DNA of 49,774 nucleotides, taken from the NCBI GenBank assembly GCA_027064025.1, contig JAMOQL010000120.1:1-49774 (forward strand). The letters run 5' to 3'. The notes under the pieces are model-generated. The model made no database searches. It was not told where the DNA came from and was given only the letters and a program-made list of their open reading frames with translations. Positions 228-16,624 of this stretch are shown here, one piece after another. Numbering within the stretch: position 1 is the stretch's first letter; every line of letters starts with the position of its first letter. The DNA is from Bacteroidales bacterium (GTDB lineage Bacteria > Bacteroidota > Bacteroidia > Bacteroidales > JAFGXI01). The position numbers and the translations under genes were made by a program.

Positions 228-677
228 TTAATTCTTTTTTATCAAGGATAGAATCCCAACGGCACAACCCTCTTTTCCATCTTCAAATGAAATTAAGACC
301 TTATATACTCCAGTTTTAGGACAAATAAAATCGAAATAAGGATAATGTTTTCCTGTCTTTGCAAAATAAGAGGTTCCTAATAATTTTGTTTTATCATAAA
401 GCTGTAAAATAGCTTTTGAATCGAACTCTGTTGCATTACAAATATTAAATCTATAATGATTTCCTTTATTTAATAATAAAGAAAACCTAGCTATTGGTTT
501 CTGTTGACCCTTTTGACGTGGCTTTAATCTTGCTTTAAGTTCTTTAAGATAAGTTGCATCGCTCCCTAATTTAGCACTACAAACCGTTACTAAAGAGCTG
601 TTACATTGAGCTTTTGCTGTATTACTTGATAATATTAATAGAGTAGGTATAATTAATATATATAAATATTTTCTCAT
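228..677 (-). CDS. Small secreted hypothetical protein with several Cys residues, probably a beta-sandwich
   Basis: 149-aa ORF. N-terminal signal peptide MRKYLYILIIPTLLILSSNTAKA/Q. Five further Cys residues. No motif I recognise. It starts 36 nt after the upstream lipoprotein gene. Confidence 0.6.
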   Translation of the reverse strand: MRKYLYILIIPTLLILSSNTAKAQCNSSLVTVCSAKLGSDATYLKELKARLKPRQKGQQKPIARFSLLLNKGNHYRFNICNATEFDSKAILQLYDKTKLLGTSYFAKTGKHYPYFDFICPKTGVYKVLISFEDGKEGCAVGILSLIKKN

Positions 678-713
678 TAATTCTATGTTTTTAGTTTAGA
701 TATCCTCTTTATC

Positions 714-1634
714 TTAATATTTAATAATAAAATTTCTAACATTTTCTACGTTAGCAATTATTTCTTCTAATTGTTCATCTGTCATTTCAATTGTTGTTGT
801 TGTATTTGAAACCACAGTTAAAACGCCATCTACTTCAATCATTTCCGATTCTCCTTCGTGTTCTATTATATTAACTTTTGATAATGAAGCGTTTAAAGTT
901 TCTAACTGGTTATTTAGTTCGAAGAATTTTTTATCATTTTTATAATGAGACAGCACAATCAACAATTGTTCCAAAACAATCTTTTGTTCAGCTACCCGTT
1001 CTCTAATAGTTTGATTATCATTTTCTTTTACAACTTGAGTTGCTAAATACAGACCTTCGACCCATACTCCTGTAACCAACAACGAACTAATACTACTTCT
1101 ATGATTTTCTACTAAATAAGCATCCATATTATCAAAAGCCGAAATTGACATATACATTAAGGAGTCTATATTTTCACTATTTGTTGCCAAACGCTTTAAG
1201 GTTTCAAAGTTAAAAAACTGACCTACTTTCAATTCATCAGAAAGTTCTTTAATCGCTGTAATGTAATTAATAACAGCACCCGTTTTATTATACATATTTA
1301 GGTAACCCATATCTGCACCTAAAACACCCAAATTAAGAGCTTGCTTAAAACTGGTATTGTATTCATCAATATCATCGGTTGAGGATAAAAACTTATAATT
1401 AAATTCTATACCTTCATCTTTTAACAAGGCAGACATTTCTACAGGCGAAGAAATATTTGATATTATTTCTCCCATTGCTTCTTGATCTTCTTCTACAGGC
1501 ACATCGTTAAAAAGAGAATCAGGAACCTCAAAGTTCTCTACATTCAAATCTGTAGTGCTTGAGTCACCCGAGTTATTACAGGCTGAAAAAAAGAAAATAA
1601 TTGCTATTAAGCTAAGCGAAGTTTTAAATTTCAT
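714..1634 (-). CDS. Lipoprotein of unknown function with a predicted helical mature part
   Basis: I moved the start to the internal ATG at 1634 (MKFKTSLSLIAIIFFFSAC NN), which gives a lipobox Cys. The longer ORF-track start at 1697 would lie inside the ABC gene. The ATG overlaps the ABC gene stop by 4 nt (ATGA). Confidence 0.7.
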   Translation of the reverse strand: MKFKTSLSLIAIIFFFSACNNSGDSSTTDLNVENFEVPDSLFNDVPVEEDQEAMGEIISNISSPVEMSALLKDEGIEFNYKFLSSTDDIDEYNTSFKQALNLGVLGADMGYLNMYNKTGAVINYITAIKELSDELKVGQFFNFETLKRLATNSENIDSLMYMSISAFDNMDAYLVENHRSSISSLLVTGVWVEGLYLATQVVKENDNQTIRERVAEQKIVLEQLLIVLSHYKNDKKFFELNNQLETLNASLSKVNIIEHEGESEMIEVDGVLTVVSNTTTTIEMTDEQLEEIIANVENVRNFIIKY

Positions 1635-4600
1635 TTTTTGTGTTTTTTGATTCTTAAATAAAGATAAAATTGTTTTAAATTGAAATACTTTAGCCAATCA
1701 ACTTTTGAACTTATTATTAACAATTTACTTAACAAATCGAAGTATAATGTTATATAAAAGACAATTGTCATTAGCCAAATAATAATAATATTGAATCCAA
1801 ATGTATTATAATAATTTCCTGCAAAAAATTTCTTTGGAGCATAAAAATGTGAACGGAAATTAAAATATCCCTCATCACTTCTTGGAAGCATAAAAATTGG
1901 ATCTATTTGTTGAATAAGGGCATCGTTATATCTGATAAACTGATTCTTTTCATAGATGTTTTTAACTATATCGCTTACAGCATCATTTCTATAGTCATTC
2001 TTTAATTTCTTATACAATTTAGGATTGTTTTCCATTGCCCAAGATATTATCTTATCTTTTTTCCCATTAGCTTCGGTAAACATATTACTATAATAAGTAT
2101 TCAATTCCTCGATATATGACTTTGAAAGAAAAGTTATAAAAAGAGACAACGAATCGGGTTGTAATTTATCGACAAACTTATCGATTGGGAAATTCGGTAA
2201 AACATGATGTTGTTTTTTAAATTCGTTTTGCAATAAATCTAAATCTTCTATTACCTTTTTCTGAATTTGAGGATCGTCAGATTTACAATTTTTATAACTA
2301 TAATCAAGCCGTTCTTTTAACTCAGGGAGATAATAAATTTGTTTAAAATTAGAGACACTTTCTTTTTTATCAATTTCAAAAAACTTTTTCTCGTACTCAT
2401 TATTCTTAAATTGGTTAACCATAAGAGCTTCGTAAGCCCATTTAGAGGCCATAAATTCAGCTACAACAGGTACTTTTTCTACAGTTCCAATACTTCTGTT
2501 TAATTTATCGAAACTAAACATGGCTCCTCCTAAAATCATTTGTGGTATTAAAATTAAAGGAATCATAATATAGATTGTAACCACCGAATTAAAAGCCGAT
2601 GAAATATTTAAGCCCAAAATATTAGCAAAAGAAGCTATACTAAACAACACAATCCAATATTCATAAGTCATTCCCTTAATCCCAAGGATAGAATTACCAA
2701 TAATTGCAAACAGAGCCATTTGAATGGCTGATAAAGAAAATAGAATTCCTATTTTAGATATCAAATAGGAAGACCGACTCAGGTTAAGAAACTTTTCTCT
2801 TTTAAGTATCTTTCGATCTTTAAAAATCTCCTCCGCACTTACGGTAAGCCCCAAAAAAAGTGCAACCACAATTGTCATAAAGATATAAGGAGGGATATTT
2901 TCGTTTTCTCTAAAAATATACACCTGTGAATGCGGATCTGCAATATATCTAATAATAAAAGCTAAAATAACAGCAAGAAGCGGAGCTTCTAATAAATTCA
3001 TCACAATATATTGAGCATTACTTACCTTTGATAAAAAATCTCTTTTAAGATAAATAATTACTTGAGAAAACCATTTGGGTATAGATAAAGACTTTGGAGG
3101 TTGATCGTTAACTGTAGTTATGGCTTTAGTACTAATATTTTCTTGATAAGAATTAGCCCAAGTTTCGGGAAGTACTTTACGTTTTTCTTGAAAAATCCCA
3201 TATTCATCGACTACCTTTGCCTCAATAATATTAAAAATTAATTCAGGGTTTACATTTCCACAAACATGGCACTCCCCAACATCACTATTAACCTGAGCGT
3301 CAACCTTTTTGAAATACATCACTGCTTCTACAGGATTCCCAGAATATATTAAATAGCCTCCAGTATCGAGAATAATCATTCTATCAAACATTTTAAAAAT
3401 ATCTGATGATGGTTGATGAATAACCACGAAAATTAATTTTCCCTTAAGGCTTAACTCCCTTAATAAGTCCATAACATTCTCTGAATCTCTAGAAGAAAGT
3501 CCAGAAGTTGGTTCATCAACAAATAATACGGACGGTTCTCGTATTAATTCAAGAGCAATATTAAGCCGTTTTCGCTGTCCGCCACTAATCAATTTATTTA
3601 AAGGATTCCCTACTTTTAGATCGCGACGATCATATAACTCTAATGATTTTAGAGTTTTATTTACCAATGCATCTAATTCTTCTTTTGTAGAATCTTTAAA
3701 ACATAATTTTGCATTAAAGTATAAATTCTGATAAACAGTCAGCTCTTCAATTAACAAATCATCTTGAGGGATATAACCTATTACACCTTCCAATTCTTCT
3801 TTTTCTGCAAAAAGATCTAAACCATTAATTAATACCTGTCCACTTGTTGGGGCTTGTAAACCCGCCAGAACATTCATTAAAGTTGTTTTACCTGCTCCAC
3901 TGGCGCCCATTATTCCAACAAGTTTCCCTTGCTTTTCTTCGATATTTATATTTCGAAGTCCTAAATTCCCATTAGGAAATTGATAAACAATATTTTTGGC
4001 TTGAAAAGAAATATTTACCTGAGCCCTATCTCGCATAAAACGAGCTATAACATCACTATAATACAAAGGTTTACCCTTTGGTAATTTAATAGAGCTTCCA
4101 TTTGCAAATAAATAAATACTCTCCTTTGTTAATGGTAATCCATTTATTAACAAAGAATTAGCCCCAGTATATTTAACAAAATACAAATCGGTGCTTTCAA
4201 CTCTAAGAATACAAACACGCCCTTCTAAACCTTTTATATTAACATAAAACGAATGTTCGTCTGATTGTTGTTCACTTTCTTCGTAAACAATAATATTTTT
4301 GTTACTTATTTCAGAAATATTTGATAAGACATAGTTTTTAATGTCTTTTACCTCTGTAGAAGAAATATTGAATACTTCGGCAACTGTAGATATTATTGCC
4401 ATTCTTTGCTCAGTAAACTTTTTGTCAGAATTAACCAACTCATAAAGTCTAACTAGCACTACAACTTTCTGTTTCTGCGAAAGTGTTTTATTAATTTTTT
4501 TTGCAATTCCTAGAGTTTTTACAGAATCTCCAACTGAAGTAAGATTCCCTGTACTCTCTTCTTTTTTTTCTCTAAGTTTACTCGTTTTTTTACGAGATTT

Positions 4601-4765
4601 TGCTTTTTTCTCAAAGAGCTCTAAATATGAGTTTAAATCATGCTCTCCAATTTGCTGACGTAAGAACGCACGAACATAAGCCCGCTCAGTATCTTCAACT
4701 CCACCATCTTGTTTTGCAATAATTGCAAATAATTGCATTAAAGCTTTTAAAATCTCTTCACTCAT
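1631..4765 (-). CDS. ABCG-like fused ABC transporter (ATPase plus ABC-2 permease) with a long N-terminal regulatory extension (TerB-like helical region, then an FHA-like segment)
   Basis: Walker A GASGAGKTT, ABC signature LSGGQRKR and Walker B LFVDEPTSGL are present, followed by a multi-TM ABC-2-type region. A soluble insert of about 200 aa precedes the last TM. Roughly 280 aa lie ahead of Walker A. The start is 22 nt after the DUF1987 gene. Confidence 0.85.
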   Translation of the reverse strand: MSEEILKALMQLFAIIAKQDGGVEDTERAYVRAFLRQQIGEHDLNSYLELFEKKAKSRKKTSKLREKKEESTGNLTSVGDSVKTLGIAKKINKTLSQKQKVVVLVRLYELVNSDKKFTEQRMAIISTVAEVFNISSTEVKDIKNYVLSNISEISNKNIIVYEESEQQSDEHSFYVNIKGLEGRVCILRVESTDLYFVKYTGANSLLINGLPLTKESIYLFANGSSIKLPKGKPLYYSDVIARFMRDRAQVNISFQAKNIVYQFPNGNLGLRNINIEEKQGKLVGIMGASGAGKTTLMNVLAGLQAPTSGQVLINGLDLFAEKEELEGVIGYIPQDDLLIEELTVYQNLYFNAKLCFKDSTKEELDALVNKTLKSLELYDRRDLKVGNPLNKLISGGQRKRLNIALELIREPSVLFVDEPTSGLSSRDSENVMDLLRELSLKGKLIFVVIHQPSSDIFKMFDRMIILDTGGYLIYSGNPVEAVMYFKKVDAQVNSDVGECHVCGNVNPELIFNIIEAKVVDEYGIFQEKRKVLPETWANSYQENISTKAITTVNDQPPKSLSIPKWFSQVIIYLKRDFLSKVSNAQYIVMNLLEAPLLAVILAFIIRYIADPHSQVYIFRENENIPPYIFMTIVVALFLGLTVSAEEIFKDRKILKREKFLNLSRSSYLISKIGILFSLSAIQMALFAIIGNSILGIKGMTYEYWIVLFSIASFANILGLNISSAFNSVVTIYIMIPLILIPQMILGGAMFSFDKLNRSIGTVEKVPVVAEFMASKWAYEALMVNQFKNNEYEKKFFEIDKKESVSNFKQIYYLPELKERLDYSYKNCKSDDPQIQKKVIEDLDLLQNEFKKQHHVLPNFPIDKFVDKLQPDSLSLFITFLSKSYIEELNTYYSNMFTEANGKKDKIISWAMENNPKLYKKLKNDYRNDAVSDIVKNIYEKNQFIRYNDALIQQIDPIFMLPRSDEGYFNFRSHFYAPKKFFAGNYYNTFGFNIIIIWLMTIVFYITLYFDLLSKLLIISSKVDWLKYFNLKQFYLYLRIKKHKK

Positions 4766-4787: not shown

Positions 4788-5168
4788 TTAGTCTTCGTAT
4801 GGTATTTGTTCGAATGGAACATCTACAATATCAGCATATTCCTCACCAGCTTCTTCCATATCCTCATCATCTTCAGGAAAATACCATTTAACTGAAATTT
4901 CTTTTCCTGCCTCAAACATTTCTTCAAGTTTAAGAAGAATATCTAATAGTAATTTAGACGATGCTGTATTAAAATATTCTAATTTAAAGCCAAAAGTCAT
5001 TTTTTTATACTTGCTTTCTGAGAAATCTTCAAGCCAGTCTAGAATTGGATCATAAAATGCCCCAACATCTTCTGGCAAAGAGCGTCCAGACAACTGAAAA
5101 ATTTCATTCTCTACATCTAAAACAACTGCAGGAGTATCGTCCGTTCCTTGAATCTTGATTATATCCAT
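4788..5168 (-). CDS. SiaC-like DUF1987 regulatory phosphoprotein (partner-switch substrate)
   Basis: 126 aa. The N-terminus IKIQGTDDTPAVVLD..FQLSGRSLPED and the YFNT(68)ASSK motif are typical of DUF1987/SiaC proteins. The C-terminal tail is acidic. Confidence 0.75.
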   Translation of the reverse strand: MDIIKIQGTDDTPAVVLDVENEIFQLSGRSLPEDVGAFYDPILDWLEDFSESKYKKMTFGFKLEYFNTASSKLLLDILLKLEEMFEAGKEISVKWYFPEDDEDMEEAGEEYADIVDVPFEQIPYED

Positions 5169-5196: not shown

Positions 5197-5766
5197 TTAT
5201 TTCTTTCTTTCTATTCGCGATGTTAATATAAAAAATGATACCTGGTCATCGATATCTAAGAAATAGAATTCGAGTGGATTTCCTGTTTTTTTAGCAATAT
5301 CGATAAATCCTAGACCAGCTCCTTGCTTATCCGAAAGAGTACCTCCTTTAATTTGTTCTTTATGAAGTTTTTTTAATCCTTCTTTATCAAGGCTGTTTAT
5401 CAGATTTAGCTGATTTGTTAATTCTTTAATATTATCGTTTGAAACAACATTTCCTGTTGTTACACCATATTGATTTTCGTCTTTATGAATTAAAAAAACA
5501 CCTCTTTTTTCTTTATGGACTTCCCCTAAATCAACCTCCTCGGCATGTTTACTTATGTTTTGCAAACACTCTACCATAACATGAAAAACTTTCCGTTGGG
5601 TAGAACTCGACTCATCTGCTTTATCCATTGCAGATTCGGTTAAAGAGGTAAATGCTTTAGTTATATCATGAGTAATTTCTCCTTCGTATACCAAACTCAC
5701 TTCATTCTGTTTCATTAGTTTATAAAACTGAAAAACGCTTTTGATAAATTCACTTTCTTTAATCAT
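5197..5766 (-). CDS. SiaB-like small protein kinase (anti-sigma-factor-kinase/GHKL-like fold)
   Basis: 189 aa. It has the N-box-like ECLQNISKHA and the G-box-like GAGLGFIDIAKKTGNPLEF that I associate with SiaB-family kinases. It sits between the PP2C and DUF1987 genes. Confidence 0.7.
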   Translation of the reverse strand: MIKESEFIKSVFQFYKLMKQNEVSLVYEGEITHDITKAFTSLTESAMDKADESSSTQRKVFHVMVECLQNISKHAEEVDLGEVHKEKRGVFLIHKDENQYGVTTGNVVSNDNIKELTNQLNLINSLDKEGLKKLHKEQIKGGTLSDKQGAGLGFIDIAKKTGNPLEFYFLDIDDQVSFFILTSRIERKK

Positions 5767-5777
5767 TATTATATTCT

Positions 5778-8405
5778 TTAAAATCCAATTCCTATTAATA
5801 ATATATCATCTATTTGCTTATGCGCTCCTTTATATTCGTCAAAATCTTTAACAAACTTATTAGAATATTCAGGCATTCTCAATTCTTGATTCTTAATAAT
5901 TAACTCTCGCATCCTTTTAGCTTGATACTTTTTATGAGTCTTCTCGCCTACTTGATCAGGTAAACCATCCGAGAAAAAGAAAATCTTATCATCCTTTTTA
6001 ACATCAATTACATAATTTGTAAAATCTTTCTCTTTCTTTTTTTTATGAGGTATTCCTCCAATAGCCTTTCTATCACCTTTAAATATCTCTAAATTATTAT
6101 CACGCAATAAGTATAATGGGCGATGTGCTCCAGCATATTCTAAAACCTTTGTCTTTTTATTATATTTACATAATGCAATGTCCATACCGTCTCTAGCATT
6201 AGCTCCCTCTTGATCTTGACGAAGTGTTTTTCGTACTCCATAATGTAGTTCATCGCAAACTTGAGCTGCAGAAAGTTCTCTATCGTGGTCTACAATATTC
6301 TGTAATAAAAAATATCCAATAAACGAAAGTAAGGCACCTGGGACGCCGTGACCTGTACAATCTACTGCGGCAACATAAACATAGTCTCCTTTTTCAAAAA
6401 GCCATGGAAAATCTCCACTAACAACATCTTTAGGTTTATAAAATATAAAAGAGTCTTTAAAATGATTTTTCAAAACTCCATTATCAGGCAAAATAGCATT
6501 TTGAATTCTTTTAGCATAATTTATACTCTCTGTAATTTTTTTATTCTTATCCTTAATTTCTAGCTCAATCTTCTTTTGCTCTGTAATATCATGAGCCACA
6601 AACAAAACCGTTTCTAAAGTTTGTTGTTCATTATATTCTGGAATAGATGAAATATGCATAATTCTTTGCAACTCATCTGTATCAATAATAAACTCAGCTT
6701 CTTTGTTTACTGGATTTTGATTCATTTCATCGAGAACATTTTCGAAAAAATCTTGTAAACCATTCGGTAATTGGACTTCACTAATAGGTTTATTTATAGC
6801 TTCTTGCACCTGCACTCCTGTATATTGTGTAAAAGTAGGATTTAAATAGAAGAATTTTTTTGTTGAACTTCCAATTCTCATAATAACATCGTTAGAGTTT
6901 TCGGATAGAGATTGCATTTGTCCCCTTCTTCGTTGCTCTTTCTCGGCCAATTTTCTTTGCGATATATCTCGAGTATTTAGAATAATTCCAGCAATTGCGA
7001 GATTTTCTAAAAGATTGATAGCCGTAACTTCTAACCAAACTTTTATACCTTCGTTTTCTTTATACAAAAACTCTACACTTTCTTTCTTTGATGGATTCTG
7101 TTTTACAGAGTTAAATAATTCTTCTAAAATTTCTTGGTTTTGTCCAAGATCTTCAAATATATATGTACCTATCTTTTGGTCAGGCTCATAGCCTAATATT
7201 TTTGTCGTAGCAGGAGACTCATATTGTACAATTCCGTCTTCGTTAATTATTGATATTACCTCTGACGCATTCTCTAACAAAGAATTTAATTTAGTTTGTG
7301 AATTCTCAACTTCCTGAATTTTAATAGCTAAATCTTTATTGGTTTCCTCCAACTCTTCTTGAGTAGACAACATTTCCTCTGCATTTTGTCTTAATTCTTC
7401 TTCATTTTCCTGCAATTCGGTTGTCATTGCTTGTGACTCTGAAAGAAGATTCGCTGTTTTTTCATTAATTAGTATATTAAAGATCGTTTGACCAATAACA
7501 TCTCCTAAATTATTCACAAAATGAATAACACGCTCAGATATTTCGTTGTCAACAGCAGCAAACTCTATTACTCCTCTCAATTTTTCGTCACTAATTAAAG
7601 GAACCAATAAAATTGAGCCAGGCTTTTTATCACCAAGAATTCCAGAGCTAATAGAAACGTAGTCTTCTGGAATTTCTTTTCTATAAATATACTGCTTTTC
7701 GTATGCAACTTGTCCAATAAGACCAACTCCTATAGGAACTTCTTGTTTAATAAACTTCTGCCTGTCATAAGCATACGATGCAACATTTTCAAGAATTTGC
7801 TTTTCTTCATCATATAAATAGAAAGAGCCTTGAATTAAATTAGTGTAGCTTATAATATCTAACAATACTTGATAGGCTAGTTGATTAATATTATTGTATT
7901 TCCTTAAAGTTGAAGAAATAATATCTCGACCTTTTATTTGCCAATTTTGCTCAGTTTCTTTTATTGTTGATTCCTTAAGATTATCTCTCATTAAGATTAA
8001 TTTCTTAATTAAATCATCCTTTTTATTAGTATCTAAAGAAGCTTCGTAATTTCCTTTACTTATTTCATCAGAAAAGCTATAAATACTTTTTAAGTATTCT
8101 TTTTTATCAATTATTTCGTTTTTAAAAGAGGTTTGATCTTTATCTATTATTTTAGCTAGAATTAAAGCAACTCCACCTAAAATAAACGGAGCTAAATCGA
8201 TAACAAAATGTAGTGGATTTGAGATATGCATAGTCCATAAACCTGTAACCGTAATATGAATCCCTCTAAATAATATATCAATAGTCCATGAAATAATGGG
8301 GAACATCATTCCAAAGAGAAAGCCCGCAACAGGATATTTTTGGGTTTCTTCAGATAAATTAAAAAGCCCCTTTTCTACTTCAATATTTTCTTTTTGTTCT
8401 ATCAT
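5778..8405 (-). CDS. Membrane-anchored GAF / coiled-coil / 2x PAS / PP2C (SpoIIE-family) protein phosphatase, SiaA-like
   Basis: 875 aa. N-terminal hydrophobic helices, then a GAF (YAYDRQKF..GVGLIGQ..SSGILG), a Q/E-rich coil and two PAS-like blocks. The C-terminal SpoIIE/PP2C motifs are SGDFPW...AAVDCTGHGVPGALLS...FSDGLPDQ...DDILLIGI. The ATG overlaps the stop of the upstream GAF gene by 1 nt. Confidence 0.85.
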   Translation of the reverse strand: MIEQKENIEVEKGLFNLSEETQKYPVAGFLFGMMFPIISWTIDILFRGIHITVTGLWTMHISNPLHFVIDLAPFILGGVALILAKIIDKDQTSFKNEIIDKKEYLKSIYSFSDEISKGNYEASLDTNKKDDLIKKLILMRDNLKESTIKETEQNWQIKGRDIISSTLRKYNNINQLAYQVLLDIISYTNLIQGSFYLYDEEKQILENVASYAYDRQKFIKQEVPIGVGLIGQVAYEKQYIYRKEIPEDYVSISSGILGDKKPGSILLVPLISDEKLRGVIEFAAVDNEISERVIHFVNNLGDVIGQTIFNILINEKTANLLSESQAMTTELQENEEELRQNAEEMLSTQEELEETNKDLAIKIQEVENSQTKLNSLLENASEVISIINEDGIVQYESPATTKILGYEPDQKIGTYIFEDLGQNQEILEELFNSVKQNPSKKESVEFLYKENEGIKVWLEVTAINLLENLAIAGIILNTRDISQRKLAEKEQRRRGQMQSLSENSNDVIMRIGSSTKKFFYLNPTFTQYTGVQVQEAINKPISEVQLPNGLQDFFENVLDEMNQNPVNKEAEFIIDTDELQRIMHISSIPEYNEQQTLETVLFVAHDITEQKKIELEIKDKNKKITESINYAKRIQNAILPDNGVLKNHFKDSFIFYKPKDVVSGDFPWLFEKGDYVYVAAVDCTGHGVPGALLSFIGYFLLQNIVDHDRELSAAQVCDELHYGVRKTLRQDQEGANARDGMDIALCKYNKKTKVLEYAGAHRPLYLLRDNNLEIFKGDRKAIGGIPHKKKKEKDFTNYVIDVKKDDKIFFFSDGLPDQVGEKTHKKYQAKRMRELIIKNQELRMPEYSNKFVKDFDEYKGAHKQIDDILLIGIGF

Positions 8406-9094
8406 TATTCTTCGAATGCTTCAATTAAAAACTTAATTCTTCGTTCCGATATTTTCTTAAATGTAGCCACCTCAACAACGCCTACGACTTCTTTATGGTT
8501 AAAGATAGGTAAAATATACAAAAAATTTGGCTTAGCTTTACCTAATCCCGAAATTATTTCCATATCTATTTGTTCGGCAATATCAATCCCCACTGGCAAA
8601 CCACTAATAGCAACCTGCCCCGTAATACCTTCTCCCACTTTTATCTCTGTTGGATACATTTCATTGGCAAGAGCATAGCTCGTACTTATACTTAATATTT
8701 TATCTTTCTTTTCGTATGCTAAACCTGCAACCAATTGAATAGCGTCTGCTAATTTTTGAAATTTCAAATTAAATATTTCGCTTTTTGACAAATTACGATC
8801 TATTTGCTCAACTAATTTCAGGCATTTATTTTCTTCATCAATCTCATTTTCTATTATGTTATCTTCACTATTTTCATCTACCAGATTAGTAAGCGCTTCA
8901 AATTCTAATGATATCTTTTTATCTGAGCCTCTCAATAAAATAATATTTATAAGTAATAAAATAATTGATACAAATGCTGAAGAAAAAACAATCTGAGAAA
9001 AATATTTATATTGAATTAGATTTAATATAATTACTCCTATACAAAAAAGGAGGATTATCAAGTTTATATAATTTACTATTTTAAAATTTTTCAT
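8405..9094 (-). CDS. Membrane-anchored stand-alone GAF-domain protein
   Basis: 229 aa with two N-terminal TM helices and a C-terminal GAF (GEGITGQV..ISGLGKAKPNFLYILP..VVGVVEVATF). This GAF is paralogous to the GAFs of the 10506..12485 and 5778..8405 products. Confidence 0.75.
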   Translation of the reverse strand: MKNFKIVNYINLIILLFCIGVIILNLIQYKYFSQIVFSSAFVSIILLLINIILLRGSDKKISLEFEALTNLVDENSEDNIIENEIDEENKCLKLVEQIDRNLSKSEIFNLKFQKLADAIQLVAGLAYEKKDKILSISTSYALANEMYPTEIKVGEGITGQVAISGLPVGIDIAEQIDMEIISGLGKAKPNFLYILPIFNHKEVVGVVEVATFKKISERRIKFLIEAFEE

Positions 9095-9124: not shown

Positions 9125-9682
9125 TTATAAGTTATTAATAAATTTTGAAATATTTTCTACATTTAATATTTGGTCAGGCTTAAACAACTTCATTGCCGCA
9201 TTAGGCATTGTACTTATCTGACTATCATTGGGATCTTGTACAATTGTACAGCCTCCAAAATCAGAAATCTTTTTTAACCCGTATGCTCCATCTCTATTTG
9301 CTCCCGACAAAATAATTCCAACGAGTTTTTCTCTATAAGCCTCGGCTGCTGTTTGCAATGATAGGTCTATCGATGGTCTCGAATGGTTTACTTGTTCGCT
9401 AACAGAAAGAGAAATACGCCTGTCAACATCTATTAACATATGATAATTGGCTGGTGCTAAGTATGCAATTCCAGGCTTAACTATAGTTTTATCAGAGGGT
9501 TCAATTATTTTAATATTAGATTTAATAGATAGGGCTTCAACAAAGCCATTTCGAACGTGTTTTAAGCGATGTAAACTTAAAAAAACAGGGAGGTTAAAAT
9601 CTTTTGGCAAATGTGACAAAAGATGTACAATAACCTGAAAACTACCTGCTGACCCTCCTATTATTAATGCTTTATACGTCAT
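9125..9682 (-). CDS. CheB-like protein-glutamate methylesterase/deamidase, catalytic domain only with no receiver domain
   Basis: 185 aa. Candidate triad contexts are IIGGSAGS (Ser), FLSLHRL (His) and ILSGANRDG (Asp). These resemble the CheB motifs GASTGG / QHMP / TGMGxDG. The ATG overlaps the CheR-like stop by 1 nt (TAATG). Confidence 0.75.
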   Translation of the reverse strand: MTYKALIIGGSAGSFQVIVHLLSHLPKDFNLPVFLSLHRLKHVRNGFVEALSIKSNIKIIEPSDKTIVKPGIAYLAPANYHMLIDVDRRISLSVSEQVNHSRPSIDLSLQTAAEAYREKLVGIILSGANRDGAYGLKKISDFGGCTIVQDPNDSQISTMPNAAMKLFKPDQILNVENISKFINNL

Positions 9683-10503
9683 TAGTTCTTTTTCTTATAG
9701 ATACTCTCCTTGAGATTAAAAATAGTAAATAATTCTCTATTTGCATCATCTACTAAACTTTCTTTTACACCTAATATTAAAAAGCCTCTAGATTTTAAAC
9801 TTTTGATTAAGTTTTGAGCCACATCGGCTTGTTTCTTTTTATTATATCTTAATAAAATATTCCTATATAATATCATATTTACAGCCTTCGAAAACGGTTG
9901 TTCTATTTCATTATATTCGTATTGAATTGTATTATTAAATAGACTATTTAAAGGAATCATAACGTTCTGTACTTTCGTAAAATATTTTTCGTCTAAATTA
10001 TGCCCATCTATTCTCTTATAATTAGATAGACTTAGTCCATGTTTACGTTCTTCATAATTAAAACCTCCTTTCACATCCGAAAGCACCTTGAAAGGAGAGG
10101 AATAGAATACTTGAATTTTATCAGCCATCCCCAACTCTTCTCTTAAAATAAGAAATGATAATAATTCAGCACCTTGAAAGCAGGAAGGAATCCAAACCTT
10201 ATACATAATATCTCTAGAAAAATTATGCAAGACCTCTTCTTTTACAATCCGCCATAAAGCAGGGTCTCTAAATAATTCAAAAGAGTCAACTAATAAAAAT
10301 TTAATAAATTCATTTCTAAGACTCGAAATTTTCTTTACTTTATTAAAAAGGTCATCAACTGAAGTTATTTTGTATTTATCTATAAACTGTTCCATTTTTA
10401 TTTTGATGGAAACATATGTAAAATCAGATAAATCAAAATTATATATTTCGTTAATAAACTCTATAATTTTCTTTACATCTTTTATTTTAAGGCTAAATCC
10501 CAT
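9682..10503 (-). CDS. CheR-like methyltransferase-fold protein with divergent SAM-binding motifs
   Basis: 273 aa with CheR-like length and layout. KVWIPSCFQGAELLS aligns with canonical (R)VWSAxxSTGEEPYS, and MILYRNILLRYN aligns with IFCRNVMIYF. By eye the acidic ASDID-type motif is replaced by YSSPF. The start is 2 nt after the sensor stop. Confidence 0.65.
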   Translation of the reverse strand: MGFSLKIKDVKKIIEFINEIYNFDLSDFTYVSIKIKMEQFIDKYKITSVDDLFNKVKKISSLRNEFIKFLLVDSFELFRDPALWRIVKEEVLHNFSRDIMYKVWIPSCFQGAELLSFLILREELGMADKIQVFYSSPFKVLSDVKGGFNYEERKHGLSLSNYKRIDGHNLDEKYFTKVQNVMIPLNSLFNNTIQYEYNEIEQPFSKAVNMILYRNILLRYNKKKQADVAQNLIKSLKSRGFLILGVKESLVDDANRELFTIFNLKESIYKKKN

Positions 10504-10505
10504 TT

Positions 10506-12485
10506 TTACTCTTTACTATTTATTTTGGTTTCTAATTCTTTTATTCTTTGTAGTAATTCACTTTCTCTTCTCGACGATTCTTCTTGTGTAGCCTGCATTT
10601 CTTCGAGATTTTGTCTCATTTCTTCTTCTTGAGCAGATAACTCTTCAGATTGTTGCTGCGATTGTTCCAATAATTCCGACGTTTGCTGTGAAATTTTCAC
10701 AGAAGACAAGGTTGAGGCTATACTTTCGCTTATGGTTTCCATAAATTTTATTTTATAATCTTCAATGGGCTTAAAGGATGCTATTTCAATAACAGCAAAT
10801 ACTTTTTCTTCAATTTTCATTGGGACAATTAACAAAAACCTAGGGTTTGCAGTTCCTAATCCAGAAGATATATTAACATAATTATTTGGTATTTCTGAAA
10901 GATAAATAGTCTCCTTTTCAAATACACAAGCCCCTATTAAGCCTTCACCAAATTGAATTTCTTTTTCTAAGAATTTCTTTCTATCATACGCTACTGCCGA
11001 AATTAATTTCAAAGATTTTTCAGTATCGTTAACAATAAACAAACCACCCTGATTTGCTCCAATATACTCTATCACATTTCGAACAATCGTATCAGATAAA
11101 ACCGAAATATCATTTGAATTCTGCCTCAATATCTCTGAAAATTTAGCTATCCCCTCAGTCGCCCAGTTTCGTTTTTCCTCTTCTCGTTTTCTCTCTTGTT
11201 CTAGTTGGTCTGCTTCTTTTAGATTATCTCTCATTTTTATTAGAGAATGGCTTAAAACATCTTCTTCGTTGATATTTTTGAGATCAACTTCCAAATTACC
11301 CTTACCTATTTCATTTGCAAAACTAGTCGATTTTTTCAATCTATCTATCAAAGTATTAAACACATCAGTAATTATTCCAATCTCGTCTGTCCTTTTATTA
11401 TCGATGCTATCTATCAACTCTCCTTTAGCAATTCTTTGGATACTTTTCCCTAAACGGGTTATTGGCTTTGAAACAATCTTTGATATTAACAAAAACAAGA
11501 GAACAAAGCTTATGAAAAAAGCAAGCAATGCAACTATAATACTCGAGCGAATTAAACTAATCATTTTCGCTGAGCTTTCTTTATTATCGATTTGATATAC
11601 GACAAAAGCAATATTTTTTTCATTAAAATCTTTAATAGGAATAAATGCATAACTATATTTATCTGTACTTTTCAAATTTATTCCCAAACCATCTTTTATA
11701 TTAAAATCTTCTGCGTTAATACTTTGGTTGATATAGGCTTCTGAACTTGCCAATTCTACAAAATCCTCATTAGCCTCTATGTTTTTCTTATTTGATAGTT
11801 TGTCCAAACTATTCTTATCTATATACAAAGCATATTCTTTCCCTTCATGATTTTCAATTAACTCATCAATAAATTTCAAAAAAGGATATTCGATTTGAAC
11901 AGCTCCTATGTATTGATTTGTGTTATCTAATATTGGAGCTACAGCGTTTACAAACAAGCCATTTTGATTTACATCAATACCTTTTACAGCAGAATGTTTG
12001 TTAGATATTGTCAATAATATTTCTGAAAAATCACTTAAATCAGATCCTCTTTTATTTGACCACGTTTTATAAAAAGAAGTTGCTGGAGGTAATACAAATT
12101 GAATCCTAGTTTGGAGTTCACTAAGCTTATTTGTTTTGTCTACTAGAGGACTTATTGTTCTTCGTAAAATTGAACTTGTAGAATCCTGGTTATTAATTTT
12201 TTTTTGAAGAATATATGCCCAACGTACTGAAGGTAATTCAGAAAGCATCGAACTCGTAATAAGAGCTTGTTCTGATACTGTTTTCACTTTAGAATATAAT
12301 AATTCTTGAAATTTCACGGCATCCATAGTAACTCGTTCAGTTTGATAGTCTTTTGAATCTCTAATTTTTCTGAAGATTGCAAAACTTGTCAACAATAATA
12401 CAATTAACACTATAGGAATAACTAGTTTATTTGATATCGAAGATTTAATTTTTTCGAGAATATATTTTCTTTTCTTTTGTCCCAT
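10506..12485 (-). CDS. Membrane sensor: TM, Cache-like periplasmic domain, TM, HAMP, HAMP-like linker, GAF, Q/E-rich coiled-coil tail
   Basis: I moved the start to the ATG at 12485 (MGQKKRKYILEK.. followed by a TM helix). The ORF-track start at 12761 would overlap the divergent gene at 12574. HAMP is SKPITRLGKSIQRIAKGEL..DEIGIITDVFNTLIDRL. GAF is AYDRKKF..GEGLIGA..SSGLGTANPRFLLIVP. The protein has no kinase, cyclase or MCP signalling domain. Confidence 0.8.
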   Translation of the reverse strand: MGQKKRKYILEKIKSSISNKLVIPIVLIVLLLTSFAIFRKIRDSKDYQTERVTMDAVKFQELLYSKVKTVSEQALITSSMLSELPSVRWAYILQKKINNQDSTSSILRRTISPLVDKTNKLSELQTRIQFVLPPATSFYKTWSNKRGSDLSDFSEILLTISNKHSAVKGIDVNQNGLFVNAVAPILDNTNQYIGAVQIEYPFLKFIDELIENHEGKEYALYIDKNSLDKLSNKKNIEANEDFVELASSEAYINQSINAEDFNIKDGLGINLKSTDKYSYAFIPIKDFNEKNIAFVVYQIDNKESSAKMISLIRSSIIVALLAFFISFVLLFLLISKIVSKPITRLGKSIQRIAKGELIDSIDNKRTDEIGIITDVFNTLIDRLKKSTSFANEIGKGNLEVDLKNINEEDVLSHSLIKMRDNLKEADQLEQERKREEEKRNWATEGIAKFSEILRQNSNDISVLSDTIVRNVIEYIGANQGGLFIVNDTEKSLKLISAVAYDRKKFLEKEIQFGEGLIGACVFEKETIYLSEIPNNYVNISSGLGTANPRFLLIVPMKIEEKVFAVIEIASFKPIEDYKIKFMETISESIASTLSSVKISQQTSELLEQSQQQSEELSAQEEEMRQNLEEMQATQEESSRRESELLQRIKELETKINSKE

Positions 12486-14503: not shown

Positions 14504-15454
14504 ATGAAAAAAGGAATTATTTCAGGAATGTCAGGATCTGGGAAATTGGGAATTCTCTTATTAATCATCATAGTTTCAACACTAATAATGGGAGCTTTAG
14601 GACTAGCAGTTGCTTATTTAAAAACAGGAATAGGATTAAACACTAGTGTACTAATGGATTATAACAATCCTGATACTATTACCTACATGAAAATCATGCA
14701 GATTTTCCAAGCTATTGGTTTATTTATTATTCCTCCAGCTTTTGCAATCTTCTTATTTGGGAAGAAAGGTGAAAATTATTTACAATTCAGAAAGACAAAT
14801 CTTCTTTTTATCCTAGTAGCGGGATCTTTAATGATTGTAGCTTTACCGCTTATCAATTGGTTTGCTGAATTTAATCAAGCATTAATTTTACCAGACTTTT
14901 TATCAGGAATAGGTCAATGGATGCACGAAAGTGAAGCTTCGGCTGCAAAAATAACTGAGTATTTTCTGAAAGCTGATAATATTCCTACACTATTATTAAA
15001 TCTGTTCATTATGGCCTTACTTCCTGCTTTTGGAGAAGAAATGCTTTTTAGAGGAGTATTGCAACGAATATTTATCCAAATGAGTAAAAATATTCATATC
15101 GGAATTTGGATCACAGCATTTTTATTTTCGGCTATTCATATGCAATTTTTCACATTCTTACCTCGATTCTTTATGGGGGCTATGTTTGGATATATGTTAG
15201 TTTGGTCAGGCTCTATTTGGCTTACAATTACGGCTCACTTTGTAAATAATGGGACTGCTGTAATTATTGGTTACCTCACCGATAAAGGGAGTATCAGCTC
15301 TGATGTTGACACTATTGGAACTAATAATTTTGTTTATATTATAGGAAGTTTTATACTTGTTAGTACAGGTATGTATTACTTAAAAGTAAAAGCAGAAAAT
15401 CGATTTGAACAAGAGTTATTAAATACCACCGAGCAAACTATCGAAATTAAATAA
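14504..15454 (+). CDS. CPBP-family intramembrane glutamic endopeptidase (CAAX protease-like)
   Basis: 316 aa and polytopic. Motifs are FGEEMLFRGVLQ, FSAIHM and AHFVNNG. Confidence 0.8.
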   Translation: MKKGIISGMSGSGKLGILLLIIIVSTLIMGALGLAVAYLKTGIGLNTSVLMDYNNPDTITYMKIMQIFQAIGLFIIPPAFAIFLFGKKGENYLQFRKTNLLFILVAGSLMIVALPLINWFAEFNQALILPDFLSGIGQWMHESEASAAKITEYFLKADNIPTLLLNLFIMALLPAFGEEMLFRGVLQRIFIQMSKNIHIGIWITAFLFSAIHMQFFTFLPRFFMGAMFGYMLVWSGSIWLTITAHFVNNGTAVIIGYLTDKGSISSDVDTIGTNNFVYIIGSFILVSTGMYYLKVKAENRFEQELLNTTEQTIEIK

Positions 15455-15501
15455 TAATATTAATTCGAAAAAGACTTCTGGGAATATTTATTACTGGAGG
15501 A

Positions 15502-16449
15502 TTAAAACAAACTGTACTGGAAACTTGTTTCTTCGTCCTCTTCGGGCACTGTCGTTGTTTCTTTATTATCTGTTTGTTTAGTTGTCGTTAATTCCTGCTC
15601 AACAATTATTGCCTCATCTTGTATTTGGCTTGGAATATTATTTGTTGAATCTTCATAAATTTCAGTTTCATTCTGAAGAGGCTCAACATTGTCTGTTCTC
15701 AAGTCTTTATTTACAACCCTATTTTTCCTATATTCATCCGAAACATGTTCTTGTTCAGGAATAATTTCGTTTCTGCGAAAGAAATAAACAACGCCATACT
15801 TACGACAAAGATTCCGTCTATGGACCTCTGGGTTAGGCTCAAAAGAAGCTTCTATCTCGTTCCATAATTGAAGAATTACTTTATCTACTTCAGGTCTATA
15901 ATTAGCGACTTGCTTACTTGCTCTTACATAACTATCCTGTAAATTTTTCTGAAACCGATAAGCCTCCTTAAAGTTTTCGTAGTGAACTTTAACAATCCCA
16001 ATAGTTGGATTTGTCATTGGGTTCCCCCCGTTAGCAATACGCTCTGGTTCACCATTCACAACTATCTCTCCCCATTTCAATAAACCTTGTTCTGTTTTTA
16101 TCTGTGGTAATTTCTTGGCATCTTTATCTAAATTAAAATAATCTCTAGCTTCTTTTTTTAAATCGCCTCTTATTATTGCTAAATTTAAAACCTGAATAAA
16201 ATGTGAAACGTAATTCCTTCCCTTTTTGTACAAATAATTATACTTAGGACTTTTCTCTGTTTGCAAGTGATAAGCTTCTTTCTGATACTGAATTAAGCGT
16301 TCAAAATGTGGCAACGTTTTAATAAGGTTATTCAGAGAGGATTGAGAAAATGGTTTATCACGTGGAGCTAAATCTTGGGCATTTTCTATAGCTAATTTTA
16401 ATGCTTTTAACCTTGCACTATCGGTATTAGGTAATCTTCTATATGGCAT
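15502..16449 (-). CDS. Hypothetical protein with an acidic, Thr/Glu-rich C-terminal tail
   Basis: 315-aa ORF with no signal peptide or TM. The N-terminus MPYRRLPNTDSARLKALKLAIENA is unfamiliar to me functionally. The last 90 aa or so are low-complexity and acidic. Confidence 0.6.
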   Translation of the reverse strand: MPYRRLPNTDSARLKALKLAIENAQDLAPRDKPFSQSSLNNLIKTLPHFERLIQYQKEAYHLQTEKSPKYNYLYKKGRNYVSHFIQVLNLAIIRGDLKKEARDYFNLDKDAKKLPQIKTEQGLLKWGEIVVNGEPERIANGGNPMTNPTIGIVKVHYENFKEAYRFQKNLQDSYVRASKQVANYRPEVDKVILQLWNEIEASFEPNPEVHRRNLCRKYGVVYFFRRNEIIPEQEHVSDEYRKNRVVNKDLRTDNVEPLQNETEIYEDSTNNIPSQIQDEAIIVEQELTTTKQTDNKETTTVPEEDEETSFQYSLF

Positions 16450-16624
16450 CTTATAGTTAATTTGTTTGTGCGAATTTACAAATTGATAATCAATATTTCA
16501 GTATTCGCTAAAATTTGTATCAACACTATCTTGTTAATTAAAAGAAACTTAATATATATTACAAGTTTTGAAACTAAACAACTGAAAATTAAGTATAAAA
16601 GAGTCAAACTTATAAATTAAAATT

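Follow-up and report, generated by a model that had tools for sequence, protein, structure and literature searches.

Here we analyze a CheR-like/CheB-like gene pair at positions 9125-10503, minus strand, of a contig from a Bacteroidales bacterium (JAMOQL010000120.1; the whole stretch of 49,774 nucleotides is called the window). We interpret the locus as a CheR/CheB module of the methyl-accepting coiled coil (MAC) type that is connected to a PP2C-SiaB-SiaC partner switch, and in which a conserved, probably cofactor-impaired CheR paralog is the only CheR of the operon. The general framework, with coiled-coil targets other than methyl-accepting chemotaxis proteins (MCPs), a CheB that is independent of CheA and an output of the SiaABC type, is highly probable. 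Within this framework, we put the probability that the CheR-like protein is functionally non-catalytic or strongly impaired at roughly 0.55.

The open reading frames (ORFs) and coordinates of the pair are as given in the initial annotation of the window, which had described the pair as an orphan. This term is misleading, since the two genes are part of a conserved multi-gene operon of the described MAC class. The MAC systems form the one branch of the chemosensory superfamily that lacks experimental data, and the present locus together with its more than 80 relatives provides a short, very conserved candidate substrate motif and a defined pathway from a PP2C phosphatase via SiaB and SiaC to an ABC transporter.

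A degenerate CheR-like protein next to a receiver-less CheB

The two genes of the pair are:

9682..10503, minus strand: CheR-like protein, 273 amino acids (aa) (Pfam CheR, alignments, AlphaFold2 model, Foldseek)
9125..9682, minus strand: CheB catalytic domain only, 185 aa, triad S11/H38/D131 (Pfam CheB_methylest, alignments)

The CheR-like protein matches Pfam CheR with 48.8 bits (cut-off 27), compared with about 131-144 bits in relatives that carry an acid in beta2, and its match to CheR_N is below threshold. The AlphaFold2 model (pLDDT 93.3, pTM 0.90) confidently shows a complete CheR fold, in which an N-terminal set of four helices is combined with a Rossmann-type core and a small beta-subdomain. 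The best structural match in a Foldseek search was the B. subtilis CheR (5FTW, TM-score 0.78/0.83), followed by P. aeruginosa CheR1 and the Salmonella CheR.

It had been claimed that the motifs for binding of S-adenosylmethionine (SAM) are degenerate, and this was confirmed by HMMER alignments to the CheR proteins of Salmonella and B. subtilis, with which the MAFFT alignments agree. In class I methyltransferases, an acidic residue after beta2 binds both ribose hydroxyls of SAM, and we take D154 to be this residue in the Salmonella CheR. In the window protein, the end of beta2 has changed from VFASDID to VFYSS-PF, which places S136 at the position of D154, and there is no acid at all among residues 131-139; in the model, S136 directly follows the strand formed by residues 130-135. 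Motif I has changed from AASTGEEPYS to PSCFQGAELLS, of which only C108, G111, E113 and S116 match the pattern AxCSxGEExYS. Furthermore, CRNVMIYF has been altered to YRNILLRY, with Y213 in place of the Cys and R219, adjoining Y220, in place of Y235, whereas R230/N231 are kept as R214/N215. Likewise, FFRE has changed to LFRD, with R98 of Salmonella kept as R79; R98 and Y235 are, like D154, taken to be functional residues in the structure of the Salmonella CheR. The residues retained are G111, E113, S116, R79, R214 and N215. Together, these motif states suggest that binding of the cofactor is impaired, and the CheR-like protein probably lacks catalytic activity.

The CheB-like protein has been reduced to its catalytic domain, as was originally noted. 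The match to Pfam CheB_methylest (156.9 bits) spans residues 7-182 of the 185 aa and therefore leaves no room for a receiver domain, which is also missing from all other CheB proteins of the operon family, the 81 orthologous copies being 180-229 aa long. The catalytic triad proposed at the outset is intact: S11/H38/D131 align to S164/H190/D286 of the Salmonella CheB in alignments to solved CheB structures, and in an alignment of 82 operon CheBs none of the three residues varies. CheB is, moreover, one of the best-conserved products of the operon. A truncated CheB without the inhibitory receiver is freed from that inhibition, and the CheB of the window is thus predicted to be an active esterase/deamidase beyond phosphorylation control, which should be either constitutively active or gated only by the conformation of its substrate or by a partner.

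The CheR-like and CheB genes are closely coupled. In the window they share the 1-nt TAATG overlap at 9682 that had been pointed out previously, and among the 65 loci with a CheR-like copy of this type, the distance from its stop to the start of CheB has a median of 1 nt and is at most 10 nt in 54 loci, with an overlap in 22. The CheR-like gene is the invariant upstream neighbor of CheB, and two natural CheR-CheB fusion proteins (P0111 and P0183) were identified among the nearest relatives.

CheR paralogs in the related operons

A word-indexed search for homologs of the CheR-like protein yielded 36 proteins, and a full profile search yielded 42,036 CheR relatives, of which the best 150 were used as the nearest representatives. 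A scan with one genome per species identified 80 loci, all in the Bacteroidota, and the counts below are given over 81 loci. Two CheR genes are present in the operon in 50 of the 81. In every one of these 50, the copy adjacent to CheB, here called Rl, has no acid at the column of D154, whereas the second copy, called Rc, has the canonical motifs (WHAGCSxGQE.YS, A[ST]D[IL]N and CRNV.IYFN). When all CheR genes in the loci are considered, 66/67 of those not adjacent to CheB have Asp or Glu at the D154 column and 67/67 have Tyr at the column of Y235, whereas the corresponding numbers for the CheB-adjacent copies are 17/82 and 52/82. Most of the CheB-adjacent copies with an acid come from Cytophagales operons, in which they are the only CheR. 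The contrast between 50/50 and 9/25 is one of counts only, since the loci are not phylogenetically independent, and 65 of the CheB-adjacent copies were classed as Rl by the missing acid, so that Asp or Glu is absent from them by definition.

In a neighbor-joining tree, the Rl proteins form a long-branched group of their own, apart from Rc, from the single CheR of the Cytophagales and from the CheRs of chemotaxis clusters. The mean identity over identical genome pairs is 34% for Rl, compared with 52% for Rc, 54% for the phosphatase, 60% for CheB and 69% for SiaC, and Rc is more similar than Rl in 161 of 161 genome pairs. Hence, the CheB-adjacent copy evolves faster than the canonical copy. Among 46 positions that are at least 90% conserved in the canonical copies, 33 are relaxed in Rl, including the D154 column, the Leu of the D/N-L motif on the adenine side, and the Asp and the Cys of FD.I.CRN. 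The FRD motif, W84, E113, S116 and R214/N215 are kept, as is the Arg-Arg of helix alpha2 in most Rl proteins. The acid is missing in 63 of the 150 nearest representatives, and all 63 have another residue than Cys before RN, mostly Phe or Tyr; this joint loss looks like a remodeled pocket rather than random decay. The earlier suggestion of a pseudo-enzyme or adaptor is thus supported by the loss of the acid in 50/50 loci, by the faster evolution and by the coupling to CheB, and a loss of SAM binding or activity is predicted from the sequence. Cultured relatives with the two-CheR version of the operon are found in Carboxylicivirga, Saccharicrinis, Labilibacter and Salinivirga.

The clade of the window has only the degenerate copy. 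It consists of seven contigs, which are the window, an orthologous contig with a 78%-identical protein (GCA_054011295.1), a Bacteroidales metagenome-assembled genome (MAG; GCA_016936665.1), an Acetofilamentum MAG and three metagenomic contigs. In the flanks of about 3.4-10 kb to either side of the operon, neither Rc nor any other CheR besides Rl was found in these seven contigs, in which the operon begins right after a divergently transcribed RlmL-type gene. Motif I of the clade reads PSC..G[AS]EL, the Y235 column has Asn or Arg, the Arg-Arg of helix alpha2 has been replaced by Ile-Lys and the Leu on the adenine side by Glu. Judging from these motifs, the clade of the window is more degenerate than the other Rl lineages. 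In one of its contigs (L088, 8655-10828) there is no sensor gene, and the CheR-like gene comes first after the divergent RlmL-type gene.

Compared with the 78% ortholog, the ratio of nonsynonymous to synonymous substitutions (dN/dS) is 0.10 for the CheR-like gene and lower for CheB (0.054), the phosphatase (0.048) and SiaC (0.034); all four values are rough because dS is near saturation. A ratio of 0.10 indicates purifying selection and therefore a gene that is still functional. The possibility that the CheR-like gene is a pseudogene or in decay was rejected on the basis of this ratio, the conserved length and the intact frame.

We also considered the possibility that a canonical CheR from another part of the genome methylates the substrates in trans, with the CheR-like protein as an accessory factor and CheB reversing the methylation. 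This would explain why CheB and the Glu-Glu heptads described below have been kept without a methyltransferase in the operon, and in relatives from the Marinilabiliales a che cluster next to the operon indeed contributes further CheR genes. However, tblastn detected no second CheR in the 49.8-kb window, and none lies in the flanks of the clade operons covered above. When a canonical paralog was used as the query and the locus tags of the related MAG were sought, none could be traced among the best 120 of 3010 matches. We consider methylation in trans to be improbable.

In two other lineages (L041/L048/L050/L062/L065 and L035), the sole CheR of the operon looks canonical except at the D154 column, where Gly (..TGIN..) or Asn (..TNIS..) is found (in L035 the gene at 9953-10816). 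Here, too, the only CheR is without the ribose-binding acid, and these cases are independent.

Candidate substrates and the probable partner switch

The genes of the operon form a tightly packed run on the minus strand, from 12485 down to 228. In addition to the CheR-like/CheB pair, they encode:

10506..12485, minus strand: membrane sensor, 659 aa from the ATG at 12485 (Pfam dCache_3, HAMP, GAF_2)
10578..10688, minus strand: MAC segment of the sensor, aa 600-636 (regular-expression scan)
8405..9094, minus strand: small GAF protein, 229 aa (Pfam GAF_2 18.4 bits, below cut-off)
5778..8405, minus strand: SiaA-like sensor phosphatase, 875 aa (Pfam SpoIIE 67.3 bits, PAS, GAF_2)
7353..7442, minus strand: MAC segment of the phosphatase, aa 322-351 (regular-expression scan)
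5197..5766, minus strand: SiaB-family protein kinase, 189 aa, DUF6272 (NCBIfam NF038262, Pfam DUF6272, PDB 6KKO chain A)
4788..5168, minus strand: SiaC-family regulatory phosphoprotein, 126 aa (Pfam SiaC, PDB 6KKO chain C)
1631..4765, minus strand: TerB - ABC ATPase - ABC-2 membrane protein, 1044 aa (Pfam)
228..1697, minus strand: two unannotated ORFs of about 308 aa (714-1697) and about 149 aa (228-677) (position in related loci)

The sensor consists of a dCache_3 domain, a transmembrane segment, HAMP, GAF and a C-terminal coiled coil, and has no output domain; its start at 12485 is backed by ortholog lengths of 662-668 aa. The phosphatase has a hydrophobic N-terminus (probably membrane-spanning, by eye), followed by GAF, the MAC coil, two PAS domains and the SpoIIE/PP2C domain. 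It had been suggested that the pair acts on targets other than MCPs, for which the C-terminal coil of the 10506-12485 product was the candidate, and we found the expected pattern both there and in a second coil in the PP2C phosphatase. The sensor coil ...QQTSELLEQSQQQSEELSAQEEEMRQNLEEMQATQEE... contains six successive [EQ][EQ] pairs (QQ, EQ, EE, EE, EE, EE) with an exact spacing of seven residues at aa 600-636. The phosphatase segment ...TTELQENEEELRQNAEEMLSTQEE has EE pairs at 336/337, 343/344 and 350/351, that is, three heptad-phased pairs at aa 336-351 (...ENEEELRQNAEEMLSTQEE...), and the sequence ENEEELRQNAEEMRATQEELEK is nearly invariant in the phosphatase orthologs from the Bacteroidales to the Cytophagales.

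The classical methylation consensus of chemoreceptors, EExxA(S/T), occurs once in each coil, and EEMQAT (EEMRAT in orthologs) fits this consensus. A run of three heptad-phased pairs was identified in 37/76 of the sensor-type ORFs and 39/77 of the phosphatase ORFs, as against 6/2,407 of the other ORFs. The sequence around the heptad motif is almost invariant across orders, and the motif of the sensor coil is conserved in sensor-type proteins throughout the Bacteroidota. Heptad-phased pairs of this kind characterize the MAC proteins, and the coils of the sensor and the phosphatase are likely to be the targets of the pair. Gln is limited to the two N-terminal pairs of the sensor coil, and the three or four best-conserved pairs are Glu-Glu already, so that deamidation alone would leave the invariant CheB with little to do, and the earlier proposal of a dominant deamidation is not supported.

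Two of the downstream genes match the SiaB and SiaC components of a SiaABC-type partner switch. The kinase scores 174.2 bits against NF038262 (cut-off 85) and matches chain A of PDB 6KKO (E=1.8e-15), and SiaC scores 139.3 bits against Pfam SiaC and matches chain C of the same structure (E=7.6e-17). The phosphatase scores 161.7 bits against the NCBIfam SiaA model, for which the equivalog cut-off is 700, over the C-terminal 264 aa that correspond to the PP2C part only. The SiaD diguanylate cyclase is absent after SiaC. Instead, we find the TerB-ABC transporter and the two ORFs, neither of which matched any Pfam or NCBIfam family, and these likely take the place of the cyclase as the output of the switch, with the transporter as the probable output of the pathway. 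A literature search found no paper that links CheR/CheB to SiaABC-type modules.

Alternatively, the pair could be left over from a chemotaxis system and either act on classical MCPs encoded elsewhere or include a CheR-like gene in decay. Each of the two proteins has homologs among the chemotaxis enzymes, but CheA, CheW, CheD and receiver domains were not detectable by tblastn in the window, and no MCP signaling domain (MCPsignal) was matched in the sensor, the phosphatase or the other Pfam-scanned products. Furthermore, the order of the operon and the non-MCP coil motif are conserved in the Bacteroidales, Marinilabiliales and Cytophagales, and the intact frame and low dN/dS of the CheR-like gene speak against decay. 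Such a remnant is thus very improbable, and the classical chemotaxis reading was rejected because CheA, CheW and MCPs were not found in the window and the operon is a conserved, non-chemotaxis one.

From the domain content, motif states, synteny and selection observed, we infer the following mechanism. The CheR-like/CheB pair would be the covalent-modification module of a MAC-type system whose signal goes to a SiaABC-like partner switch and not to a CheA kinase, and its substrates would be the Glu-Glu/Glu-Gln heptad pairs in the coils of the dCache sensor and the membrane PP2C phosphatase. The sensor, with its periplasmic dCache domain, and the phosphatase may communicate via the MAC coils or both be tuned at them, and the modification state of the Glu/Gln pairs may bias the activity of the phosphatase and hence the phosphorylation of SiaC. 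The phosphatase would set the phosphorylation state of SiaC, opposed by the SiaB-family kinase, and SiaC probably acts on the adjoining TerB-ABC transporter. Rl would work mainly without catalysis, as a coil-binding factor that recruits CheB or regulates it. In the relatives, methylation would be performed by the canonical Rc of the same operon, which the clade of the window seems to have lost from the operon.

A non-catalytic role for Rl is best supported because of the changes in the pocket, the coupling to CheB, the CheR-CheB fusions and the co-occurrence of a canonical CheR. Taken to its full extent, the Rl lineage could be a true pseudo-methyltransferase that serves as a coil-recognition or regulatory subunit and replaces receiver control of CheB. 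The writer would then have been lost in the clade of the window, leaving a reader-plus-eraser module that tunes the PP2C/SiaB/SiaC switch controlling the ABC transporter. We advance this full version only tentatively.

Several points weigh against a non-catalytic Rl or favor the opposite explanation, namely that the CheR-like protein is a working glutamate methyltransferase with non-canonical SAM binding, which together with CheB mediates reversible methylation of the MAC coils and is the only methyltransferase that the clade needs. The Gly and Glu of motif I (G111, E113) are still present, as are FRD with R79 and R214/N215. The loss of a single acid is no proof of lost SAM binding, and S135/S136, being small and polar, could contact the ribose; one member of the clade (L008) even has a Glu at the aligned D154 column. 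As described above, the sole CheR lacks the acid in two other lineages as well. A strictly conserved CheB and pairs that are Glu-Glu seem to require methyl-glutamate as the methyl-ester substrate and hence a methyltransferase, and no methyltransferase besides Rl is visible in the operon of the clade. Moreover, the MAC motifs are unchanged in the clade without Rc, and the CheR-like gene is under purifying selection. Residual methyltransferase activity may thus be retained.

However, in all 50 loci with a canonical CheR the adjacent copy is without the acid, which points to a relaxed cofactor constraint. After the loss of Rc, the clade of the window has degenerated further rather than recovered, as seen in motif I, in the change of Y235 to Arg or Asn and in the replacement of the adenine-side Leu by Glu, and the Pfam CheR score is far below those of the acid-bearing relatives. 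We therefore regard a working methyltransferase as possible but less likely, and favor an Rl that is non-catalytic or strongly impaired. The related loci provide a natural series of operons with the canonical CheR only, with both the canonical and the degenerate copy, and with the degenerate copy only. This series makes it testable whether glutamate methylation can tune a partner-switching phosphatase, and how a CheB without a receiver domain is controlled.

Comparison with described systems and variation among operons

The MAC proteins were defined by Wuichet and Zhulin (2010) and are built into MiST3 as MAC1 and MAC2 (PMC6943060). According to the published summaries, CheB and CheR are fused to the MAC protein in MAC1 and encoded alongside it in MAC2, and the class has been described bioinformatically, being experimentally uncharacterized (bioRxiv 10.1101/2022.05.07.491037; PMC6943060); in one summary the MAC proteins are given kinase functions (bioRxiv 10.1101/2022.05.07.491037). 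The system in the window resembles MAC2 as thus outlined, by description rather than by a match to the MiST MAC2 profile, in that separate CheR and CheB genes are located beside a coiled-coil protein with methylation-like pairs, without CheA and CheW. It differs from the outlined MAC2 systems in that the MAC proteins have a PP2C domain or no output domain, with HisKA/HATPase in neither of them, in that a SiaB/SiaC partner switch and an ABC transporter follow, and in that the CheB-adjacent CheR is a degenerate paralog.

Like the SiaABCD system of P. aeruginosa (PDB 6KKO; NCBIfam NF038262-NF038265), the operon encodes a PP2C phosphatase with membrane/HAMP-type input, a SiaB-family kinase and SiaC in the same gene order. 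Unlike that system, there is no SiaD in the operon, where TerB-ABC follows, the phosphatase has GAF, a MAC coil and two PAS domains, and a CheR/CheB module has been added.

The only CheR pseudoenzyme that we found in the literature is CheWS of T. denticola, in which a non-catalytic CheR-like domain serves as a SAM sensor (PMC10653840). In CheWS the SAM pocket is preserved (Kd about 9-18 uM), whereas the residues for catalysis and for receptor binding are missing, and mutation of a Glu and an Asp of the pocket together abolished SAM binding (PMC10653840). The window protein may likewise be a CheR-fold domain with another role than catalysis in a chemosensory context. It is, however, the mirror image of CheWS, since it keeps FRD/RN and loses the ribose-binding acid; of the two pocket residues, it has the equivalent of the Glu (E113) and lacks that of the Asp. 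Furthermore, CheWS is fused to CheW, whereas the window protein is free-standing and coupled to CheB.

The CheR fold, the CheB domain with its triad and the heptad-spaced Glu/Gln pairs on a helix are shared with the adaptation system of CheR, CheB and MCPs in enterobacteria. Unlike in that system, CheB has no receiver, and there is no MCP signaling domain, CheA or CheW. The window CheR-like protein also differs from the enterobacterial CheR in being without D154, most of motif I and Y235, and the C-terminus of the sensor is without an NWETF-like tether.

In METTL3-METTL14, an active methyltransferase is paired with a degenerate paralog. By analogy only, 50 related loci combine a canonical and a cofactor-impaired paralog in one operon. 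Unlike in METTL3-METTL14, the degenerate copy has CheB as its invariant neighbor, the window is without a canonical copy, and the formation of a complex is not implied. If true, the role proposed for Rl would add a bacterial example of a methyltransferase paralog that has turned into a non-catalytic partner.

Gene maps show that the order of the operon is kept from the Bacteroidales and Marinilabiliales to the Cytophagales. The consensus begins with the canonical CheR and the sensor with its coil, both of which may be missing, and continues with the CheR-like protein, CheB without receiver, the small GAF protein, the GAF-coil-PAS-PAS-PP2C phosphatase, the SiaB-family kinase, SiaC, the TerB-ABC transporter and two small ORFs. 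The TerB-ABC(ABC-2) transporter, of about 1020-1100 aa, comes next after SiaC in most loci, and the two family-less ORFs after it are present in every locus for which a gene table was inspected. The 229-aa protein has a hydrophobic N-terminus (probably membrane-spanning, by eye) and a weakly GAF-like C-terminal half, and its position in the operon is conserved in the related loci. In the window, the stop of the sensor gene and the start of the CheR-like gene are 2 nt apart, and a second TAATG overlap of 1 nt is located at 8405, between the 229-aa gene and the phosphatase gene.

Among the Marinilabiliales and relatives, a complete che cluster is located directly upstream of the operon (L006, 1-10000; also L032, L057, L059, L060, L063, L067, L079, L080 and L086), and the two systems are thus physically linked in those genomes. 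The cluster encodes a receiver, Hpt, CheA, two CheW proteins, CheR, a HATPase protein, CheD and a CheB with a receiver domain, and a soluble GAF-PAS-MAC protein of 625 aa is encoded between the cluster and the Rc-Rl-CheB-...-SiaC operon. Tandem duplicated SiaB-SiaC gene pairs were observed downstream of the phosphatase in L064, L074 and L077 (at about 14600-16530). In L005 (10001-11850), SiaB-family and SiaC genes come directly after a canonical CheR, and both CheB and the SpoIIE phosphatase are missing; in L071 (6743-7585) the canonical CheR is broken into two ORFs of 186 and 89 aa, which may be a frameshift or an Rc that is being lost. In five Cytophagales loci (L028, L033, L046, L053 and L055), the small GAF gene is separated from the phosphatase gene by about 3 kb of additional sequence, and the phosphatase is longer, about 1040 aa.

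Outside the operon, the window contains housekeeping genes according to the Pfam scan of the products, and the G+C content is uniform at about 31%. A 315-aa ORF at 15502-16449 on the minus strand has an acidic low-complexity C-terminus and no Pfam match, and a Pfam-less gene is found at the same place in the related loci.

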